From a virus, in IMG/VR virus record IMGVR_UViG_3300030397_000042, positions 1 through 5,601 of that record: a stretch of DNA of 5,601 nucleotides, one strand, 5' to 3'. The notes under the pieces were generated by a model. It was not told the DNA's origin. It saw nothing but the letters and a program-made list of their open reading frames with translations, and ran no database searches. Position 1 is the first letter of the stretch; each line of letters starts with the position of its first letter. Below, one piece after another: positions 124-5,601 of this stretch. Made by a program: the position numbers and the translations under genes.

Positions 124-511
124 CTATCCTGTTTTGGCTCAAATTGGTGAGCAGGCTGTTTTGAATCAGGAAATCTGGTACAATAATAGTCCGGGTACTG
201 GTGCGAGTAATGATCAAGGCGTGTTTGGTTATCAAGAGCGTTATGCTGAGTATCGGTATAAGCCGTCGCGGTTGACTAACCTGATGCGTGTTGATGCTGC
301 TGGTACATTGGCGAGTTGGCATTTGTCAGAGGATTTTGCTACGTTGCCTACTTTGGGTGCTACGTTCATTGAAAGTAATACTGGTGTTCCTTTGGATCGT
401 GCTTTACAGATTCCGAGTGAGCCGCATTTTATTTTCGATGCGTATTTTGATCTACAGTGTGCTCGGCCAATGCCGTTGTTTGGTGTTCCGGGTAATTTGG
501 ATCATTTCTAA
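1..511 (+). CDS. VP1: Major capsid protein VP1, 3' (C-terminal) part. It continues from 4391-5478 across the circular junction.
   Basis: The frame (codon starts 2, 5, 8...) is open from the window start to TAA 509-511, and it is the same frame as 4391-5601. The track ORF 20..511 is only the piece downstream of an internal GTG. The sequence ...[22 protein letters not shown]...[27 protein letters not shown] has the pattern of gokushovirus VP1 C-termini. Confidence 0.95.
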
Positions 512-1176
512 TGTCTGCGGGTGCGTGGGGACTGGCTGGTACTGCTCTAGGTGGTATTATGGGCTTTGCTGGTCAGAATGCTGCGAATCGTGCTAATGAA
601 AGATTGGCTCAGAAGCAGATGGATTTTCAGATGGCTATGTCTAATACTGCGGTGAGGCGTAGAATGGCTGATCTAAAAGCGGGTGGTATTAATCCGATTT
701 TGGCCGGTACATTCGATGCTAGTACTCCTGCGGGTGCTATGGCCGTCCATGGAAATGCTGGTGCTGCTGGAGTTACAGGTGCCCAGATGGGTGCTAGTAC
801 TGGTCGTGATGTCGTTACTTTGGGTGCTGACCTGAAGGCGATTGAAGAGCGTGCTAATCTTAGTAAGAAGCAGGCAGATGCGTTAGGTTTGATTGCGGAG
901 GCCAGTTCTAATGCTGCTGAGTTGCTTGGTTATTTATTGGATCGAGTTAAAGAAGGTCAAATGACTGAAATGGACGTTGATAATATGCTTGAATTTACGA
1001 GTGACAGTGTTAAAGGCTGGGCTCGTGGAATTCTGGATGATGTCCGTGAGAAGATAAATAATACTGGTGATGCTATTGCCGATTGGTATTCTGGCTCTGG
1101 CCGTGATCGACGTAATAATGGTCCTAATTGGTGGCGTGATAAAGACGGTACTATACATTTTGAGGTGCAGAAATGA
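511..1176 (+). CDS. VP2: Minor capsid / DNA pilot protein VP2 (phiX174 H analogue), 221 aa
   Basis: ATG 511 overlaps the VP1 stop (TAATG). The N-terminus is Gly/Ala-rich, followed by the block [33 protein letters not shown]. This resembles the conserved MxFQ..MSNTA.QR...DL..AG.NP.L motif of gokushovirus VP2. It occupies the canonical position right after VP1. Confidence 0.85.
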
Positions 1177-1715
1177 GTATGAAAGAAGTGGTGCGTGTTG
1201 TTGACGAAAAGGGTAAAAAGTCCCTTGCGTTTAAGCGCATTGTTAAAAAGAAAGACTATAGTGATGGTATGACCAAACAGGCTTTTGCTGATAGTTGTGA
1301 TATTAATAAGATGCTGAATAAAGCGCAACAGACTGGATCGTTGGCGCATTTGATGAAGTATCCGGAAGCCGTGTATGGTGAGTTCGATGGTGAGTTTTCG
1401 TTGTTAGATGCTCAACAGAGAATTCAGAGAGCTAATGAAATCTTTGCAGATGCCCCTTCTGAAATCAGAAGGGAGTTTGATAATGATGCATTGAAGTTCG
1501 TTAGGTTCGCTGGTGATCCCGCTAATAATGATAAGCTGCGGGATATTTTCCCAGCGTTGGCTGCTCCGGGGTCGTTTTTCCCGAATCCGGTGCAGCGGGG
1601 AGGCGTAGGAGCGGGTGCTGCTACTGCTCCTGCGGGTAGTGGTGAGCCGGGTAGTCCTCCACCGGCTCCTGCTGGTGACACCCCACCTGAGGGGGGTGTC
1701 AGTGCGCCAGACTGA
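1173..1715 (+). CDS. VP3: Internal scaffolding protein VP3, 180 aa, with an unusual Pro/Gly/Ala-rich C-terminal tail
   Basis: ATG 1173 overlaps the VP2 stop (ATGA). GAGG at 1162-1165 lies 7 nt upstream. The block [21 protein letters not shown] matches the conserved 'ECDIN' region of gokushovirus VP3. It occupies the canonical position after VP2. Stop is TGA 1713-1715. Confidence 0.8.
1298..1309 (+). other. Candidate (+)-strand rolling-circle origin core: TGATATTAATAA, identical to the phiX174 nick-site core
   Basis: 1298-1309 reads TGATATTAATAA. The phiX174-group 30-nt origin is CAACTTG/ATATTAATAACACTATAGACCAC, where the gene A protein nicks between G and A. The 12 nt spanning the nick are identical. 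Here they encode C-D-I-N-K within VP3. Confidence 0.3.
1677..1700 (+). other. GC-rich stem-loop (8-bp stem) inside the VP3 3' end
   Basis: gacacccc (1677-1684) pairs with ggggtgtc (1693-1700). The loop is acctgagg. Confidence 0.6.
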
Positions 1716-1736
1716 TATCAAGTAGACAGTCTGGCG
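1705..1736 (+). other. Stem-loop (10-bp GC-rich stem, 12-nt AT-rich loop) spanning the VP3 stop codon
   Basis: cgccagactg (1705-1714) pairs with cagtctggcg (1727-1736). The loop is atatcaagtaga. The VP3 TGA (1713-1715) sits at the stem/loop border. Confidence 0.65.
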
Positions 1737-1740
1737 GCGG

Positions 1741-1770
1741 AAAGGGGCACCTGATGGTGCCCCTTTTTTG
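1741..1770 (+). terminator. Rho-independent terminator closing the VP8-to-VP3 transcription unit
   Basis: aggggcacc (1743-1751) pairs perfectly with ggtgcccct (1756-1764) around loop tgat. A T run follows at 1764-1769 (tttttt, then g), and an aaa upstream can extend the stem. Confidence 0.75.
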
Positions 1771-1784
1771 TGTGATAGTTTCGC

Positions 1785-1804
1785 GGTCCCGCTTAGGCGG
1801 GACC
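1785..1804 (+). other. GC-rich stem-loop (8-bp stem, tetraloop)
   Basis: ggtcccgc (1785-1792) pairs with gcgggacc (1797-1804) around loop ttag. It is followed by aaaag, not a T tract. Confidence 0.6.
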
Positions 1805-1844
1805 AAAAGATTGCTTGGCATGAAAGTAAGCAAGGTTCGTGCCA

Positions 1845-1870
1845 ATTTAACATTCGGTATTATGCGAAAG
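1845..1870 (-). other. dif-like XerC/XerD recombination site candidate (possible attP for Xer-mediated lysogeny)
   Basis: The reverse complement of 1845-1870 is CTTTCGCATAA-TACC-GAATGTTAAAT. E. coli dif is GGTGCGCATAA-TGTATA-TTATGTTAAAT. The XerC arm shares T at position 3 plus the contiguous CGCATAA (8/11 overall). The XerD arm shares a contiguous ATGTTAAAT (9/11). The arms lie 2 nt closer than the canonical 11-6-11 layout. The site is in noncoding DNA. Confidence 0.5.
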
Positions 1871-1873
1871 TTC

Positions 1874-1901
1874 TTGCAATTGCTAATGATAAGCGTACAA
1901 T
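1874..1901 (+). promoter_or_regulatory. Sigma70-like promoter for the small-ORF cassette
   Basis: TTGCAA (1874-1879), a 16-nt spacer, then TACAAT (1896-1901). It lies about 14 nt upstream of the AGGAGG at 1915-1920. The -35 element overlaps the 8-bp palindrome gcaattgc (1876-1883). Confidence 0.4.
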
Positions 1902-1927
1902 GGGTGCTGTGTTTAGGAGGACTTGTA

Positions 1928-2095
1928 ATGATGCAGTTTCACGTTGAAGTAAGTGAAGATGGTGCCCAAGTTAATACCCGTGTTGAACTGCGGGGTACTG
2001 CTTGGGAAGTTATGGAGTTCCTGCAAACGGTGCGGGATACTCTGGATAATACAATTGATGACCTCGAACGAGGTGAAGGACGGGTAATACAATGA
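1928..2095 (+). CDS. Hypothetical small acidic protein, 55 aa
   Basis: A perfect SD (AGGAGG, 1915-1920) lies 7 nt before ATG 1928 (ATGATG). Product: MMQFHVEVSEDGAQVNTRVELRGTAWEVMEFLQTVRDTLDNTIDDLERGEGRVIQ, with 12 D/E against 5 K/R. The track's longer form from 1754 would run through the terminator, a hairpin and the dif-like site, so the short form is preferred. No family was recognised. Confidence 0.6.
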   Translation: MMQFHVEVSEDGAQVNTRVELRGTAWEVMEFLQTVRDTLDNTIDDLERGEGRVIQ

Positions 2096-2292
2096 GTAAT
2101 GAAGCTCTGATTAATGCTCTTGCGAAAGAGGAATCTAAGTTGGTTCGTCAGGAAGAGAACCATGAAGCGTCGAAGGCCGTGGTTGCCGTGATTGGTGATT
2201 CGGCTAAAGAAGCTAAGAAGCGTGATAAACAGCTAGAAGATATTGCGCAGACTAAGAAGAATATCGCTGCTCTTAAGAAAGCGATTAAATAG
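2092..2292 (+). CDS. Hypothetical lysine-rich helical (coiled-coil-like) protein, 66 aa
   Basis: ATG 2092 overlaps the upstream TGA (ATGA), which suggests translational coupling. The composition is A/K/E-rich with few helix breakers, 14 K/R against 11 D/E. It ends in three consecutive in-frame TAG codons (2290-2298). No family was recognised. Confidence 0.55.
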   Translation: MSNEALINALAKEESKLVRQEENHEASKAVVAVIGDSAKEAKKRDKQLEDIAQTKKNIAALKKAIK

Positions 2293-2321
2293 TAGTAGCG
2301 TCCTGCTGCTGCTGGCCTGAA

Positions 2322-2343
2322 CCGGGGGGAGATGTACCCCCGG
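2322..2343 (+). other. GC-only stem-loop (7-bp stem)
   Basis: ccggggg (2322-2328) pairs with cccccgg (2337-2343). The loop is gagatgta. Confidence 0.55.
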
Positions 2344-2361
2344 GGATGGCCTTGTGGCGCG

Positions 2362-2387
2362 CCAAAATCGCCGTGTGGCGATTTTGG
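2362..2387 (+). other. Perfect 11-bp stem-loop with tetraloop
   Basis: ccaaaatcgcc (2362-2372) pairs with ggcgattttgg (2377-2387) around loop gtgt. A G7 run follows rather than a T tract, so it is not a canonical terminator on either strand. Confidence 0.7.
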
Positions 2388-2397
2388 GGGGGAAGGA

Positions 2398-2446
2398 GTA
2401 CCATAGCCACCTGGAGTCGCTGCGCTCCTCTAGGCGGCTCTGGTAC
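2398..2446 (+). other. Long imperfect stem-loop (14-bp outer stem with 2 mismatches, 4-bp inner stem); weak terminator candidate
   Basis: gtaccatagccacc (2398-2411) pairs with ggcggctctggtac (2433-2446) at 12 of 14 positions. The inner pair is ggag (2413-2416) with ctcc (2425-2428). It is followed by a-tttt (2447-2451). Confidence 0.55.
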
Positions 2447-2472
2447 ATTTTAATGATGAAAGTCAAAAGACT

Positions 2473-2499
2473 CGCCCTACCCCTGATCGGGGTAGGGCG
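2473..2499 (+). other. Perfect 11-bp GC-rich stem-loop just upstream of the lipoprotein RBS
   Basis: cgccctacccc (2473-2483) pairs with ggggtagggcg (2489-2499) around loop tgatc. It ends 7 nt before GAGG 2507-2510. Confidence 0.7.
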
Positions 2500-2518
2500 T
2501 AAAAGCGAGGAAAGAGTT

Positions 2519-2710
2519 ATGAAGAAATTGGGAATAATATTAGTGACATTTTGTTTGTCCGGATGCGGTGCGATCAGTGCTACTAGTTTGCGTTGTGGTA
2601 CTGACGGTGATGATAGCTATGTAGAGTTGGTAAGCGCTCCACAAAATGTTGGTAGTAATGGGAGGGTAATTAGTGAAATCTGTGCGTTTGCGTATGATCG
2701 AGAAACTTGA
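2519..2710 (+). CDS. Small predicted lipoprotein, 63-aa precursor and 47-aa mature form
   Basis: GAGG (2507-2510) lies 8 nt before ATG 2519. The N-terminus MKKLGIILVTFCLSGC has a basic n-region, a hydrophobic core and the lipobox L-S-G-C (Cys16). Gly is at +2. The mature part is hydrophilic with two further Cys (C26, C55). The track's 118-aa form from 2354 would run through three hairpins and is rejected. Confidence 0.65.
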   Translation: MKKLGIILVTFCLSGCGAISATSLRCGTDGDDSYVELVSAPQNVGSNGRVISEICAFAYDRET

Positions 2711-2817
2711 GGACATGCTGGATTTGAATATTCGGCGTGAGTTTCGTATCCATGCTACTAAGTGGGATGCGATTAAGTGTATGGCTAGAAGTTTGTATTA
2801 TGAAGGAGTAAACAGAA

Positions 2818-2934
2818 ATGAAAAGGCGTAGTATGAGTGGTAGTGGTTCTCGTAGTTATTTTACGGCTACTGCTAGTAAGACTCATTATAAGAATATTAA
2901 GCCGCGTCCGATGCGTGGTGGTATTCGTTTGTAA
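2818..2934 (+). CDS. VP8: Small basic DNA-binding / packaging protein VP8 (phiX174 J analogue), 38 aa
   Basis: This ORF is too short to appear in the supplied track. AAGGAG (2803-2808) lies 9 nt before ATG 2818, and the stop is TAA 2932-2934. Product: MKRRSMSGSGSRSYFTATASKTHYKNIKPRPMRGGIRL, with 10 K/R and no D/E. The C-terminal KN...RPMRGG.R. signature is typical of gokushovirus ORF8/VP8. It sits directly upstream of VP4. Confidence 0.8.
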   Translation: MKRRSMSGSGSRSYFTATASKTHYKNIKPRPMRGGIRL

Positions 2935-2937
2935 GAA

Positions 2938-3954
2938 ATGGGCTGCGATAGTCCGTTGAAGGGATATAAGTGTCGTGAGACTGGTGGATTGGTTTTCAAA
3001 AAAGAGCAAAGTTTCGGAGAAAAAATGGATGTTGCGTGTGGTTCTTGTCTTGGCTGTAGGCTTGATTATAGTCGGATGTGGGCTATGCGAATTACTCACG
3101 AAGCGAGTCTGTATGAATTTGGTAGAGGCAATGCTTTTGTTACTTTAACGTATAGGGATAAGATGGAAGCTAGTCTTGAACAGTTGGAGAATCGTAAATA
3201 TATTCCTGATGATTGGAGTTTGCACCCTGAGCATATGACGTTGTTCCTGAAGCGTCTGCGGAAAGCGTATCCTGAAACTAATATTAGATTTTTTTATGCT
3301 GGGGAATACGGTCGTAGATGTAAGCATGGAATTGACGTTAAGCGTGTGGGGTGTCCTATCTGTAAGGTGGGGCGCCCCCATTTTCATGTGTGCTTGTTTA
3401 ATTTTGCTTGTGATGACTTGGAAGCGTATGCTAGTGACGGTGGAGTTATTAGAAAGACGTCTAAGAAGCTGGAAAAGATTTGGGGATATGGCTTTGTGGA
3501 TGTCGGTGAACTTAATTTTGCTAGTGCTAGTTATACTGCGGGTTATGTCTTGAAAAAGGTGCGTGGTCCTGTGGCTGATGATCATTATATGAACTTTGAT
3601 ATGGAGACGGGTGAAGTGATTTATTTGACTCCTGAGTTTGTGCGAATGTCGAGAGGCAATGCGAAGTATAAAGGTCAGAGGTGTGGGATTGGTGCCGGGT
3701 GGTATGAGAAGTACAAGGATGATGTTTTCCCTAGTGGTATGGTTCCGGTGCCGGGTAAAGGTGTAGTGCCGGGAGTGCCGCGTTATTATGATGAAATATT
3801 GAAGGAAGAGAACCCTGCGAGGTACGAAGAAATGCGTGAAGTGCGGGAGACTTATAGAAGGGAACATGCTGATGAATATACTGCTGAAAGATTGGAGACT
3901 AAACATAAGTGTAAAAAAGCGAGATTAAATATGTTTGAAAAGAGGTATTTATGA
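2938..3954 (+). CDS. VP4: Replication initiation protein VP4 (HUH rolling-circle endonuclease, phiX174 A analogue), 338 aa
   Basis: It carries an N-terminal CGSCLGCRLDYSRMWAMR block, motif 1 FVTLTY, the HUH motif GRPHFHVCLF (H-F-H at 3379-3387), and the double-Tyr motif SYTAGYVLKK (YxxxY..K). Confidence 0.95.
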   Translation: MGCDSPLKGYKCRETGGLVFKKEQSFGEKMDVACGSCLGCRLDYSRMWAMRITHEASLYEFGRGNAFVTLTYRDKMEASLEQLENRKYIPDDWSLHPEHMTLFLKRLRKAYPETNIRFFYAGEYGRRCKHGIDVKRVGCPICKVGRPHFHVCLFNFACDDLEAYASDGGVIRKTSKKLEKIWGYGFVDVGELNFASASYTAGYVLKKVRGPVADDHYMNFDMETGEVIYLTPEFVRMSRGNAKYKGQRCGIGAGWYEKYKDDVFPSGMVPVPGKGVVPGVPRYYDEILKEENPARYEEMREVRETYRREHADEYTAERLETKHKCKKARLNMFEKRYL

Positions 3955-4133
3955 ATGTATGGAGGGCGTACGAAAAAGAAGGAGATGGAATCTATGTCCC
4001 GAGATGTAGTAAGTGTGGGACGTTTAAGGAGCCTTTGCATGTGCATTGGTTTTTCACGGGTTTGTATTGTAGGAATTGCGTGCAATATAAACTTTATGAT
4101 GATTGTAGGACTTTGGAGGATATAAAGAAATGA
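3951..4133 (+). CDS. Hypothetical zinc-ribbon protein, 60 aa (CxxC-x17-CxxC)
   Basis: ATG 3951 overlaps the VP4 TGA (ATGA), and its own TGA overlaps the VP5 ATG (ATGA). AGAGG (3941-3945) lies 5 nt upstream. The four Cys are C19, C22, C40 and C43, in ...PRCSKCGTFKEPLHVHWFFTGLYCRNCVQ... Confidence 0.6.
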   Translation: MNVWRAYEKEGDGIYVPRCSKCGTFKEPLHVHWFFTGLYCRNCVQYKLYDDCRTLEDIKK

Positions 4134-4390
4134 AAGTTAAACTGTATGCTGTTTTAGATAGTGCTAGTGGGGTGTATGATGGTCCGGTTCCGGCTCAAGC
4201 TGATGGAGTCGCGATGCGTAATTTTCTGAATGTCGCTAAGAACCCTGATAGTCCTATTGGTAAGAATCCTGAGCATTTTAGTATTTGGCGTGTTGGGGAA
4301 TACAACGATGCTACTGGTGAAGTGACTCCTGAGACTAAGGAGTGTTTGGGACATGCGTTAGATTTGTTAACGCCTACTGAGGAAGAGTAA
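4130..4390 (+). CDS. VP5: Nonstructural protein VP5 (gokushovirus ORF5 family), 86 aa
   Basis: GGAGGA (4115-4120) lies 9 nt before ATG 4130. The pattern MKVKLYAVLDSASGVYDGP...AMRNF...KNPEHFSIWRVGEYNDATGEV matches the conserved VP5 layout (MK.F.V.D.K...F......A.R.F........HPEDF.L.E.G.FDD.TG). It occupies the canonical position between VP4 and VP1. Confidence 0.8.
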   Translation: MKVKLYAVLDSASGVYDGPVPAQADGVAMRNFLNVAKNPDSPIGKNPEHFSIWRVGEYNDATGEVTPETKECLGHALDLLTPTEEE

Positions 4391-5601
4391 ATGCGAAGTG
4401 TGATGAAGCATTCGTTTAGTGAGGTGCCGAGGGCGGATATTCCGCGTTCTAGTTTTAATCGGTCTCATGGTTATAAGACGACGTTCGATGCTGATGGGTT
4501 GGTTCCTGTATTTGTTGATGATATAGTGCCGGGTGATACTTTTAACTGTAATATGAATTTTTTTGCTAGGCTGGCTACGCCGTTGCATCCTATTATGGAT
4601 AATTTGTATCTTGAGAGTTTTTTCTTTTTTGTGCCGTATCGTTTGGTATGGGATAACTGGGAAAAGATGCATGGTGCGCAGGATAATCCTACCGATTCGA
4701 TTGATTTTACGGTGCCCGTTGCTACGTGGGGTGGGTCTCATAGTCTAGGTGGTACTTATGATTATATGGGTCTACCTACGGGTATTGCTAATGTTAGTAA
4801 TATTGTGCATCAGTTGCCTTTTAGGGCGTATAATCTGATTTGGAATGAGTGGTTTCGTGATGAGAATCTACAAAATAGTGAAGTCGTAGATACTGATGAC
4901 GGTCCTGATAGTCCGGCTGATTATGCTCCTTTGCTGAAGCGTGGTAAGAGACATGATTATTTTACGTCGTGCTTGCCGTGGCCTCAGAAGGGTGATGCTG
5001 TTTCGTTGCCGCTTGGTACTGTGGCTCCTGTCGAAGGTCTTACTGCTGATACTGGTCCTACGTTTGCTAGAGTGGGTTCTGCTGGTGTTGATAGTTATGG
5101 CCTTATGAATCAGACTGGTGTTGCCGATTTCGTGTGGCAGACTGATGATACTAATGGGGCGGCGGCGTGGCTTTCTACTGGTCTACAGGCTAATTTGGCT
5201 AGTGCTACTGCTGCTACTATTAATGATTTGAGGCTTGCGTTTCAGACTCAGAGGTTATTGGAGCGTGATGCCCGTTCGGGAACTAGGTATAATGAACTTA
5301 TCTTATCTCATTTTGGTGTTACTGTGCCTGATTTTCGTGTACAGCGCCCTGAGTTTCTTGGTGGTGGAAGTGAGAAGATTAATGTTAATCCCGTCGCACA
5401 GACTAGTGGTCAGCCTACTCCTGCGAGTGATGATATGCTTGGGCAGTTGGCTGCTTTTGGTACTGTATCGGGAAGTCATGGGTTTACGAAGTCCTTTGTG
5501 GAGCATGGTGTAGTTATTGGGCTTGTGAATGTTCGTGGTGACATTACTTATAGTCAAGGAATTGAGCGGTACTTTACGAAGCAGACTAGGTATGATTTTT
5601 A
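4391..5601 (+). CDS. VP1: Major capsid protein VP1, 5' part, open at the window end. The full CDS is 4391..5478 plus 1..511, 1599 nt and 532 aa.
   Basis: It is absent from the ORF track because it has no stop inside the window. ATG 4391 directly follows the VP5 TAA, and GAGGA (4379-4383) lies 7 nt upstream. Hand translation finds no stop before 5601. Sequence includes MRSVMKHSFSEVPRADIPRSSFNRSHGYKTTFDADGLVPVFVDDIVPGDTF...LPFRAYNLIWNEWFRDENLQ...RHDYFTSCLPWPQKG...INDLRLAFQTQRLLERDARSGTRYNELILSHFGV...RPEFLGGG, which are hallmark gokushovirus VP1 blocks. Confidence 0.95.
   Translation, partial: MRSVMKHSFSEVPRADIPRSSFNRSHGYKTTFDADGLVPVFVDDIVPGDTFNCNMNFFARLATPLHPIMDNLYLESFFFFVPYRLVWDNWEKMHGAQDNPTDSIDFTVPVATWGGSHSLGGTYDYMGLPTGIANVSNIVHQLPFRAYNLIWNEWFRDENLQNSEVVDTDDGPDSPADYAPLLKRGKRHDYFTSCLPWPQKGDAVSLPLGTVAPVEGLTADTGPTFARVGSAGVDSYGLMNQTGVADFVWQTDDTNGAAAWLSTGLQANLASATAATINDLRLAFQTQRLLERDARSGTRYNELILSHFGVTVPDFRVQRPEFLGGGSEKINVNPVAQTSGQPTPASDDMLGQLAAFGTVSGSHGFTKSFVEHGVVIGLVNVRGDITYSQGIERYFTKQTRYDF
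5479..5601. repeat. Terminal direct redundancy, copy 2 (identical to 1-123)
   Basis: See copy 1. This is an exact 123-nt duplicate, consistent with assembly or linearisation overlap of a circular genome. Confidence 0.97.

Follow-up and report, generated by a model that had tools for sequence, protein, structure and literature searches.

The only large gap between the core genes of this gokushovirus, nt 1716–2817, is, on the evidence of sequence comparison, a nested and vertically inherited region made of several layers, and not one accessory island. It is probably a regulatory and accessory region that one gokushovirus clade has inherited, built up layer by layer, and not recent cargo. In a comparison set of about 25 related genomes, the gap between VP3 and VP4 measured 395–773 nt where the lipoprotein gene orfC was present alone, versus 1041–1315 nt where orfA and orfB were also present. 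The circles of relatives with the full module ranged from 5281 to 5485 nt and those of relatives with the lipoprotein gene only from 4570 to 4977 nt, which bears out the proposal of a first-pass annotation that the extra genome length corresponds to this interval.

The window, i.e. the whole 5,601-nt stretch of viral DNA that was analysed, carries its first 123 nt again at its 3′ end, and the genome was therefore treated as a 5478-nt circle. The Gokushovirinae are characterised by VP1 (Phage_F), the VP2 pilot protein, the VP3 scaffold (Chlamy_scaf), the VP4 Rep protein, VP5 (Phage_ORF5) and a small basic VP8, with every gene encoded on the same strand and a circle size of about 4.5–5.5 kb. VP2, VP3, VP4, VP5 and VP8 were recognised in the window by family-library searches; the VP1 of the window and the annotated capsid protein of KP087936 share 72% identity, and the VP1 proteins of the relatives carry PF02305. 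The VP8-like protein, encoded by the first core gene 3′ of the gap, is 50–88% identical in relatives. As the first-pass annotation had stated, the seven core genes are tightly packed on the circle. No gap between them exceeds 3 nt except for 1716–2817, to which the remaining sequence is confined (1102 nt, 20% of the genome). This interval is not an assembly artefact: two independent assemblies (L022 and L023) carry the same island with 99.9–100% identity. A scan of the whole window detected no tRNA, and an Rfam scan (E ≤ 1) returned only two weak sRNA matches in the SL1–SL4 area, both clearly below threshold, and nothing in the second hairpin array (IG2). All features are listed in Table 1.

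Table 1. Core genes, small ORFs and cis elements of the 5478-nt circle.
Feature	Position (nt)	Strand	Junction with next gene	Description
VP1	4391–wrap–511		1-nt overlap	
VP2	511–1176		4-nt overlap	
VP3	1173–1715		the gap 1716–2817	
SL1	1676–1701	+		perfect 9-bp hairpin within VP3 3′ end
SL2	1705–1736	+		10-bp hairpin, loop ATATCAAGTAGA containing VP3 stop codon
SL3	1741–1772	+		intrinsic terminator of the VP1-VP2-VP3 unit, GC hairpin (1741–1766) and T6
SL4	1785–1804	+		hairpin heading the conserved non-coding block 1785–1844, which ends in GTTCGTGCCAA
dif-like element	1845–1870	-		minus-strand CTTTCGCATAA-TACC-GAATGTTAAAT
Promoter-like site	1874–1901	+		TTGCAA-16-TACAAT
Ribosome-binding site	1915–1920	+		AGGAGG, 7 nt before ATG at 1928
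orfA	1928–2095	+		55 aa, acidic, pI 4.3; variable slot
orfB	2092–2292	+		66 aa, basic; start overlaps orfA stop (ATGA)
SL5	2322–2343	+		IG2 hairpin array (2293–2518)
SL6	2362–2387	+		IG2 hairpin array
SL7	2398–2446	+		IG2 hairpin array
SL8	2473–2499	+		IG2 hairpin array
orfC	2519–2710	+		63-aa lipoprotein precursor; lipobox LSGC
orfD	2673–2831	+		52-aa basic ORF, GTG start, GGGAGGG ribosome-binding site
VP8-like	2818–2934	+	3-nt gap	38 aa, arginine-rich; phrog_10695, E = 1.4e-12
VP4	2938–3954		4-nt overlap	
60-aa ORF	3951–4133		4-nt overlap	
VP5	4130–4390		0-nt gap	

The layout of the interval had been likened to a moron or cargo module. If this were taken literally, the whole 1.1 kb would be a horizontally acquired, dispensable element with its own promoter and terminator, kept for a benefit to phage or host. 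We consider this unlikely. The arrangement does look moron-like, with a terminator, a promoter (a consensus match at 1874–1901) and ribosome-binding site, small genes and hairpins with T-rich tails after orfB in that order; L015 has a clear terminator, a hairpin with a T-run, after orfB; slot A, the orfA position, differs between near-identical relatives; and the extra length corresponds to the module. A single acquired island is nevertheless at odds with the conservation and synteny of orfC, orfB, IG2 and SL1–3 within a clade in which VP1 has diverged to 54–80% identity, and with the coupling of orfC to VP8 in relatives. No cellular or other-phage homolog usable as a donor was found for orfA, orfB or orfC. 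Composition, which the first-pass annotation proposed to compare, did not set the interval apart either: its GC content is 0.469 versus 0.449 in the core, and the codon usage of its ORFs is the same as that of core genes. Between close relatives, only slot A differs. A finding that relatives share this sequence as conserved core with known functions had been named as evidence against the island picture; the sequence is indeed conserved, but no function is known for it.

The eight hairpins in two arrays that had been noticed could all be mapped. No other part of the genome folds as strongly as this interval, with 200-nt windows in its hairpin regions at -50 to -60 kcal/mol versus a mean of -14.9 ± 4.5 kcal/mol outside the region. 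Folded as ssDNA, 1670–1930 reached z = -8.8 against dinucleotide shuffles, and strong folding starts already at about 1450–1500, within the GC-rich 3′ end of VP3. SL1 is found at the same place in relatives as GACTGAC...GTCAGTC, with GTCAGT invariant in 8 lineages. In SL2 conservation extends to the outer stem (CCAGA/TCTGG) and to TC(A/T)AGT(A/G)G, the core of the loop; the inner stem pairs covary. About 45 contigs of gokushovirus size, whose VP1 identity goes down to 33%, have SL2-like hairpins, in which the loop can take either orientation. By this conservation SL2 shows itself as a pan-gokushovirus cis element, and it is a candidate site for replication or packaging recognition; we found no description of such a hairpin after VP3 in the literature. 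The orientation of its loop was considered as a marker of the packaged strand via strand composition bias, which fitted 15 genomes and failed in a larger set. Direct reading of 1744–1769 gave GGGGCACC-TGAT-GGTGCCCC followed by TTTTTT, i.e. a GC-rich hairpin with a T-run directly 3′ on the transcribed strand. A hairpin and T-run, each with its own stem, occupy the same position in close relatives (8 lineages), so that the terminator annotated after VP3 is upheld both by direct reading and by positional conservation. An automatic terminator scan did not report SL3. Judged from their conservation, SL1, SL2 and the terminator are cis elements that close the capsid-gene unit. Further downstream, the block 1774–1845 shows 90% identity to L024; L014 and L018 have part of it conserved, and its end motif GTGCCAAT also occurs in L003.

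The dif-like element had been read as a dif-like site, and a lysogeny module would make it the attP for host XerCD, as in enterogokushoviruses, with the small genes acting in immunity or maintenance. XerCD-dependent gokushovirus integration is proven for EC6098, and in phage dif copies it is the XerD side that is degenerate (PMC7062461). The element compares with the enterogokushovirus phage dif motif (Kirchberger and Ochman 2020, PMC7062461) in being non-coding and intergenic and in that its XerC-type arm is good while its XerD side is degenerate. Of the 11 positions of the beta/gamma-proteobacterial dif arm ATTTCGCATAA (PMC2731167), its arm CTTTCGCATAA shares 10; ATGTTAAAT is identical to the outer XerD arm, and the element is conserved in three lineages, L024 departing from the window exactly at its outer edge. 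Against E. coli dif, 17 of 22 arm positions match, but only with a 4-nt spacer, whereas an XerCD attP has 11-nt arms and a 6–8-nt centre; this arm-based score was equalled by 8 of 200 shuffles. The element is 26 nt long versus 28 nt for dif, 2 nt too short, and its conserved cores are 6–7 nt apart versus 9 nt. With a 6-nt spacer in register, direct reading leaves the XerD arm with 3 of 11 matches. Its distribution is patchy: it was seen in these three lineages only, differs in length by 1 nt in L018, and is absent from L015, L024, L025, L026, L003 and all orfC-only genomes. A conserved peptide across the element was rejected because the L018 difference breaks the reading frame. In one genome each of 185,579 species we found no orfC-bearing locus and no VP1 above 58% identity, and hence no prophage of this clade and no integrated copy. 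In addition, the element lies directly upstream of the -35 box, which suits an UP element or an operator. We thus regard the lysogeny module as improbable, slightly more so than the acquired moron; the element is a degenerate Xer site or else the upstream portion of the promoter block of orfA.

Coming back to the layered region, its most variable layer is the orfA slot. The promoter with a perfect Shine-Dalgarno sequence described upstream of orfA is present as far as its motifs go, TTGCAA-16-TACAAT and AGGAGG; since promoter-like hits over the whole window were not above chance (12 found versus 9.7 expected), the promoter is given here as a consensus match only. The -35-like TTGC motif is common to the window, L014 and L018 within the same conserved block. 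Among 5.8 billion protein clusters, the only homolog of orfA was an identical copy. In relatives the slot is always filled by an acidic ORF of 54–84 aa whose stop overlaps the orfB start, and in 12 genomes these ORFs fall into 9 unrelated clusters, all acidic (pI 4.3–5.3). Both flanks of L024 are 84–90% identical to the window, yet it has a different promoter and a different orfA. The comparison thus points to a truly variable position, a swap site with alternative contents. The suggested recombination hotspot with alternative cargos accordingly applies to the orfA position and not to orfB, the second hairpin array or orfC, which are conserved.

orfB forms one family that was present in 11 of 11 large-island genomes, with a dN/dS of 0.08 against L024. 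AlphaFold2 predicted a helix over residues 3–65 (pLDDT 94), so that orfB is predicted to be a single long helix; searching its profile against PDB sequences gave nothing meaningful. IG2 folds as ssDNA with z = -7.4 against dinucleotide shuffles, and its architecture is conserved (z-scores of -4.9 to -8.8). L014 and L018 have the same order of hairpins with changed stems and conserved loops. The loop GAGATGTA is common to the window, L024 and L014, and the loop GCTGCGCT to the window, L014, L018 and L003; neither motif was found in relatives having orfC only. As the automatically aligned IG2 sequences were not sufficiently in register to build a covariance model, covariation was read from separate folds and by direct inspection. 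Together, these comparisons show orfB and the IG2 array to be, at the sequence level, a conserved layer of the 5.3–5.5-kb subclade, in which they form one block with a promoter region and slot A.

orfC begins with MKK, followed by LGIILVTFC and L-S-G-C16, i.e. the charged N-terminus, hydrophobic stretch and lipobox ([LVI][ASTVI][GAS]C) of a lipoprotein precursor, and by these criteria it is a predicted signal peptidase II substrate. The predicted mature protein has 48 residues, among them Cys26 and Cys55. Cys16 does not vary among 55 close homologs, and its conservation in 34 distant homologs is at least 90%; the mature part has 23 invariant columns in the 55 sequences while the signal peptide is free to vary. 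In all, 65 close homologs were collected and the family comprises at least 68 clusters at 50% identity; a metagenome scan with orfC added 3 loci only. With dN/dS values of 0.05–0.45, orfC shows the signature of purifying selection. Selection on the cargo, as claimed earlier, is in this way supported for at least orfB and orfC. The gene lies between VP3 and VP8/VP4 in 10 IMG/VR genomes and 12 further assemblies and is syntenic, immediately in front of VP8/VP4, in every lipoprotein-bearing relative examined, at VP1 identities down to about 54%; its genomic context was seen for about 25 family members out of 68 clusters. In relatives orfC is coupled to VP8 by a stop/start overlap or by a VP8 ribosome-binding site within the orfC end, and no promoter was detected directly upstream of orfC.

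None of orfA–orfD, nor the slot proteins of relatives, matched a family in Pfam, PHROGs, NCBIfam or PADLOC, and for this reason all functional statements on the island proteins are made by analogy. PF08139 gave weak hits in 6 of 34 orfC family members, and NCBIfam returned for orfC only a signal-peptide-level LptM hit (E = 0.17). A search covering 185,579 species, with one genome for each, gave no orfC homolog. The AlphaFold2 model (pLDDT 76) contains two strands and a helix and has no Foldseek neighbour in PDB or BFVD at E ≤ 0.001. Several candidate identities were rejected. The name YceK, given by JGI to some homologs, is backed by no Pfam or NCBIfam hit, and neither YceK nor a colicin-release/bacteriocin lysis lipoprotein was hit in Pfam (E ≤ 1) by the window protein and 34 family members. 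P0133 (1039 aa), a weak match of the orfC profile, is not a relative but a lectin/InlB-repeat protein in which a CGTDC repeat occurs by chance. A two-component spanin was dismissed as direct reading of the translations showed no annotated window protein with a transmembrane helix; orfB as spanin partner was discarded too, being a coiled-coil-like helix without hydrophobic segment and absent from orfC-only relatives. The GenBank microvirus records KP087952, MH572455 and MH572405 carry an orfC homolog that none of them annotates, and no description of a gokushovirus lipoprotein was found in the literature. What appears to be new here is a conserved exported-type lipoprotein gene at a fixed position beside the replication genes, unannotated in public microvirus records.

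Three small ORFs had been reported in the interval. orfA, orfB and orfC were recovered and a fourth, orfD, had been overlooked; because orfD overlaps the orfC end and the VP8 start, the truly non-coding sequence is smaller than first stated. orfD lies on an insertion of about 107 nt (~2699–2805) within the ancestral orfC end and VP8 ribosome-binding site. Relatives align to 2519–2704 and 2799–2949 and not to the stretch between, and among the genomes compared only this virus has the insertion, which by these alignments is what creates orfD. No orfD homologs were found; in L026 the same slot holds an unrelated ORF of 63 aa that includes a hydrophobic stretch. Since only copies of this same virus exist for orfA and orfD, both are without comparative coding support. 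That the interval is mainly a non-coding cis region (origin, terminator, promoter, packaging signals) with small ORFs as chance frames is very improbable: its strong folding, the conserved SL1–3, the lack of homologs of orfA and orfD and the frequency of alternative-frame ORFs in this T3/G1-biased genome would agree with it, but for orfB and orfC there are numerous homologs, dN/dS is low and the start contexts are conserved, core-like codon usage scores highest in the annotated frame for each of orfA–orfD, and slot A always holds an acidic ORF overlapping orfB.

For the layered, inherited region we propose the following scheme. The promoter at 1874–1901 would start an early transcript through orfA and orfB that continues past attenuating or stabilising hairpins into orfC, VP8 and VP4. 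The orfC product would be exported, lipid-modified at Cys16, disulfide-bonded between Cys26 and Cys55 and anchored in the outer membrane, where it would act on a conserved envelope component; outer-membrane anchoring is predicted because there is no Asp at +2, a sorting rule of Enterobacteria that may not be that of the host. The acidic slot-A proteins may be fast-turnover host-takeover or anti-defence factors working with the basic orfB, and the hairpin arrays may also serve the ssDNA genome as complementary-strand origin or packaging signal. Our best guess, by analogy, is that orfC is an outer-membrane effector acting in receptor masking or lysis. Masking of the phage receptor as by T5 Llp, which would spare progeny and block superinfection, is possible rather than probable; disruption of the envelope or lysis is a tentative suggestion. 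Of the two, receptor masking is favoured, with envelope disruption or lysis close behind.

A broader joint reading is offered with considerable doubt. In it, orfC would found a gokushovirus family of secreted, disulfide-stabilised outer-membrane lipoproteins, more conserved than the capsid and absent from cellular genomes, and would be the envelope effector of the clade, namely its missing lysis factor or else a receptor blocker of the Llp type. The upstream arms-race cassette, a hypervariable acidic slot with a conserved helical partner, would be the microvirus counterpart of an anti-defence locus. To our knowledge, no lysis or superinfection-exclusion gene has been identified in gokushoviruses, and we know of no anti-defence activity for any microvirus protein of the slot-A/orfB kind. 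The accessory gene repertoires of microviruses are reported to be very limited (PMC9239249). If the arms-race reading is true, a dedicated arms-race cassette is maintained even in ssDNA phages of 5 kb. orfC is a concrete, clonable candidate for the means by which abundant gokushoviruses affect the host envelope. The slot with its unrelated acidic proteins marks a place at which such small genomes accept and exchange cargo, and the conserved hairpin after VP3 is a candidate gokushovirus origin or packaging signal. Even without such roles for orfC and its neighbours, the picture of a unique island is corrected to that of an inherited, layered region.

Several known systems resemble parts of this region. 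T5 Llp and Cor of phi80, N15 and HK022 are small outer-membrane lipoproteins that inactivate the FhuA receptor. Like them, orfC is a small phage-encoded lipoprotein precursor with signal peptide, lipobox and conserved cysteines; the absence of Asp at +2 fits outer-membrane sorting, and its phage would gain from masking its own receptor. Unlike a homolog of Llp or Cor, orfC resembles them in the signal peptide only (phrog_1119, E = 0.067, residues 1–26), its model has no structural match by Foldseek in PDB or BFVD, and it comes from a Microviridae genome. The orfA–orfB pair recalls acr-aca loci, in which a hypervariable small acidic first gene and a conserved small second gene form one promoter-proximal unit with a start/stop overlap. 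It differs in that orfB is predicted to be a single long helix and not helix-turn-helix, and the island proteins match no Acr or Aca family and gave no PADLOC hit. Lambda-type morons are independent promoter-gene-terminator units inserted between core phage genes. The region shares with them a promoter-like site, ribosome-binding site, small genes and hairpins between two core operons, and a slot A with alternative forms in close relatives; unlike them, it belongs to an ssDNA phage of about 5.5 kb, has clade-conserved orfB, hairpins and orfC of core-like composition, and has no evident role in lysogenic conversion. In phiX174 the H-A intergenic region contains a terminator and the early promoter, and the F-G regions of phiX174 and G4 contain hairpin-based complementary-strand origins; we know of no origin mapped experimentally in any gokushovirus. 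Complementary-strand origins of the G4, phiX174 or M13 type are packaged-strand hairpins to which primase, PriA or RNA polymerase is recruited; what the present region shows is stable, conserved hairpins. The region studied here is likewise the single large intergenic region of a microvirus, with a terminator, a putative replication-gene promoter and stable ssDNA hairpins, and the complement of the SL2 loop (CTACTTGAT) resembles the phiX174 nick-site core, ACTTG/AT. In contrast to phiX174, the phiX-like motif of this clade is on the non-coding strand, and 1716–2817 also holds genes.

The first 123 nt of the window recur at its end, and the genome is therefore a circle of 5478 nt. It carries the complete gokushovirus gene set, with all genes on one strand. 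The core genes are tightly packed, neighbours either overlapping by 1-4 nt or lying 0-3 nt apart and, as the first-pass annotation had stated, all leftover sequence lies in one gap, the 1102-nt island at 1716-2817 between VP3 and VP8. Only part of its reading of this gap as one cargo island is borne out: what is inherited is a set of nested layers. The island was recovered at 99.9-100% identity in two independent assemblies and is therefore not an assembly artefact. The sole difference between two assemblies of the same virus is found at window position 2820 (1868 in the second contig, L022), where the VP8 start codon ATG reads ATA; this site lies about 115 nt from the L022 contig end and the change may be an assembly error.

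Features of the circular genome, in window coordinates
Feature	Position	Remarks
VP1	4391 through junction to 511	
VP2	511-1176	
VP3	1173-1715	Chlamy_scaf, E = 1e-26
Hairpin SL1	1676-1701	first array
Hairpin SL2	1705-1736	first array
Hairpin SL3	1741-1772	first array; intrinsic terminator
Hairpin SL4	1785-1804	first array
dif-like element	1845-1870	minus strand; CTTTCGCATAA-TACC-GAATGTTAAAT
orfA	1928-2095	
orfB	2092-2292	
IG2	2293-2518	second hairpin array, SL5-SL8
Hairpin SL7	2398-2446	within IG2
orfC	2519-2710	
orfD	2673-2831	GTG start, GGGAGGG ribosome-binding site
VP8-like protein	2818-2934	38 aa, arginine-rich; phrog_10695
VP4 Rep	2938-3954	phrog_942, E = 4e-90
60-aa ORF	3951-4133	between VP4 and VP5
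VP5	4130-4390	Phage_ORF5

All eight hairpins claimed for the gap were found. Folded as single-stranded DNA, the two areas gave z = -8.8 (1670-1930) and z = -7.4 (2293-2518) relative to dinucleotide shuffles, and in a sliding scan both reached -50 to -60 kcal/mol per 200 nt, the mean elsewhere being -14.9 +/- 4.5 kcal/mol. The announced terminator, a GC hairpin followed by T6 at 1744-1769, is a classic intrinsic terminator. The promoter and Shine-Dalgarno sequence were likewise recognized as consensus matches (TTGCAA-16-TACAAT at 1874-1901, and AGGAGG with 7 nt separating it from the start codon ATG at 1928); promoter-like matches are not enriched across the whole window. The three small ORFs are all present with the properties described, and a fourth, orfD, had been overlooked.

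Two observations concern the core genes. The 60-aa ORF between VP4 and VP5, for which Pfam and PHROG give no family, has a conserved CxxC…HWFFTGxYCxxC pattern that looks like a zinc ribbon and does not vary among five relatives, one of them GenBank MH572418. Alternative plus-strand frames (e.g. 2837-2959, 4941-5108 and 5235-5513) contain many long ORFs for Leu/Val/Arg-rich hydrophobic peptides, which are expected given that codon position 3 is strongly T-biased and position 1 is inferred to be G-biased; such overprinted ORFs should not by themselves be ground for calling lysis genes.

The nearest GenBank genome, KP087936, breaks in sequence exactly at the VP3-VP8 gap, and no nucleotide match to island DNA was found among 50,697 phage records. 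Related contigs form two grades. The orfC-only grade (e.g. L004-L012) has circles of 4570-4977 nt and a VP3-VP4 gap of 395-773 nt with orfC, VP8 and non-coding sequence. In the large-island grade (e.g. window, L003, L013-L021, L024-L027, L165-L167), the circle is 5281-5485 nt and the gap, measured in the window, L003, L014, L015, L018, L025 and L026 (gene layout only for the others), is 1041-1315 nt. The additional content consists of two overlapping small ORFs and the second hairpin array. L013 (7540 nt), a contig of this grade with a copy of VP1-VP2-VP3 at each end, is a concatemer longer than one unit of a ~5.4 kb genome and not a larger virus.

The order 3' of VP3 is common to all close relatives: SL1 (GACTGAC…GTCAGTC), SL2, then a hairpin with a T-run whose stem sequence is lineage-specific. 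In the close relatives the SL2 outer stem CCAGAG/CTCTGG is invariant, its inner pairs covary and the loop core TC(A/T)AGT(A/G)G is kept. SL1-SL3 are conserved cis elements. The first array is therefore cis-acting sequence rather than cargo, and it combines a candidate origin or packaging signal with the terminator of the capsid operon. When IMG/VR was scanned, SL2-like hairpins turned up in about 45 contigs of gokushovirus size, whose VP1 identity goes as low as 33% (window 1705-1736; L006-L011, L029-L039, L043-L152). On the coding strand the SL2 loop reads CTACTTGAT in most genomes, resembling the phiX174 nick-site core ACTTG/AT, and is inverted to ATCAAGTAG in the clade of the window plus about 8 further genomes. 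Loop orientation was compared with strand composition and shows no consistent relation to GC or AT skew. The 3' end of VP3 (1450-1715) encodes a low-complexity Gly/Ala/Pro-rich tail and has a GC content of 0.60-0.65; its folding energy, -44 to -54 kcal/mol per 200 nt, is comparable to that of the intergenic hairpins. The structured zone therefore begins inside the gene, and DNA-level constraints may shape the tail.

The swap hot-spot suspected in the gap does exist, limited to about 250 nt and not spanning the whole gap: L024 matches the window at 84-90% identity on either flank, but the promoter and orfA differ. The orfA product (55 aa, pI 4.3) has no homolog besides its own copy. The position that it holds, slot A, turns over, being occupied in 12 genomes by 9 unrelated clusters, all acidic (pI 4.3-5.3) and 54-84 aa long. 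Next to it, orfB belongs to a single family in 11/11 genomes; its 66-aa product is predicted to form one long helix (pLDDT 94), and comparison with the closest relative gives a dN/dS of 0.08.

The dif-like element lies directly upstream of the -35 box, in a 60-nt block 88% identical to L014, and seems more likely to be a promoter-associated element than an Xer site. In its XerC-type arm, 10/11 positions agree with ATTTCGCATAA, the arm of beta/gamma-proteobacteria (PMC2731167), its outer XerD arm is exact, and lysogeny that depends on XerCD is established in enterogokushoviruses (PMC7062461). A working Xer site is nevertheless improbable: the element is 2 nt shorter than dif, 8/200 shuffles equalled its score, it occurs in three lineages only with a length differing by 1 nt, and no integrated relative was found in one genome each of 185,579 bacterial and archaeal species.

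L014 and L018 have the IG2 hairpins in the window's order; the stems have changed and the loops are conserved. The loop GAGATGTA is shared by the window, L024 and L014, and GCTGCGCT by the window, L014, L018 and L003; neither motif was found in orfC-only relatives. The counterpart hairpin of L015 reads as a clear terminator (GTCGCCGC-TAAC-GCGGCGAC-GTTTTTGTTTT). The sole near-invariant IG2 sequence is (G/A)AAGG, mostly AAGGAGT, located at the 5' foot of SL7 (window 2389-2402 and the equivalent site in 7 relatives). It is probably not the ribosome-binding site of an ORF, because no conserved start codon follows.

Widespread and constant in position is orfC, which encodes a 63-aa protein with the lipobox LSGC. 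Searching IMG/VR with it returned 9 microvirus contigs, to which a VP3 search added the orfC-bearing L003; a protein search gave 65 proteins, every contig being 7.5 kb or shorter, and 1.84 billion representatives searched with a profile yielded 68 clusters at 50% identity, nearly all of small proteins. A motif-based scan of one genome from each of 185,579 bacterial and archaeal species detected no homolog. In all genomes inspected orfC lies between VP3 and VP8/VP4, mostly abutting VP8. Whereas the signal peptide is free to vary, the mature part (CGAISATSLRCGTDGxSSYLELVSAPQNVxxNTRAIGEMCAFAYE) has 23 invariant columns in 55 sequences, and Cys26 and Cys55 are invariant even in distant members. 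Pairwise dN/dS is 0.05-0.45. Purifying selection acts on both orfB and orfC, and both are genuine genes. The homolog is unannotated in all three carrier GenBank microvirus genomes, KP087952.1 (L169), MH572455.1 and MH572405.1. In the first of these, about 1.07 kb beyond the last annotated gene (L169 4239-5310) is without annotation, yet includes a VP8-like ORF.

Relatives align with the window at 2519-2704 and 2799-2949 and not in between. Their VP8 ribosome-binding site, GAAGGAG, sits within the orfC end (…FAYEG…), where about 107 nt, bordered by TATGA…TATGA, are inserted in the window. This insertion created a new orfC C-terminus (DRET) and orfD, which has core-like codon usage and for which no homolog was found. 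In L026 (3066-3257; also L027 2182-2373) the same slot between the lipoprotein gene and VP8 holds an unrelated ORF of 63 aa that includes a hydrophobic, transmembrane-like segment (YVLAGIFTVVLVLVIIG); insertions therefore have a second, minor site here.

If the region works like the phiX174 H-A intergenic region, the SL3 terminator would stop late transcripts. The promoter near 1874-1901 would begin the transcript supplying VP8, VP4 and VP5, and accessory genes inserted in its leader would be expressed early. The orfC product would be exported, acylated at Cys16 and disulfide-bonded, then presumably sorted to the outer membrane because it lacks Asp at +2. Its mature part is more conserved than the capsid, which points to a conserved host envelope partner.

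Established roles of small phage lipoproteins are three: o-spanin, receptor masking (Llp, Cor) and release/lysis; no support was found for homology of orfC to any of them. Receptor masking is tentatively favoured, since it fits early co-expression with replication genes and an apparently lytic lifestyle. Envelope disruption or lysis ranks only slightly below it; gokushoviruses are not known to have a lysis gene. For a spanin role, the window has no partner protein.

Not found described in the literature are a conserved lipoprotein family fixed beside gokushovirus replication genes, the variable acidic slot and the invertible pan-gokushovirus hairpin. Phage lipoproteins as such are already known, as are small accessory genes of microviruses. 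Slot A and orfB resemble anti-defence loci in layout alone, with fast-changing acidic proteins coupled to a conserved basic helix.
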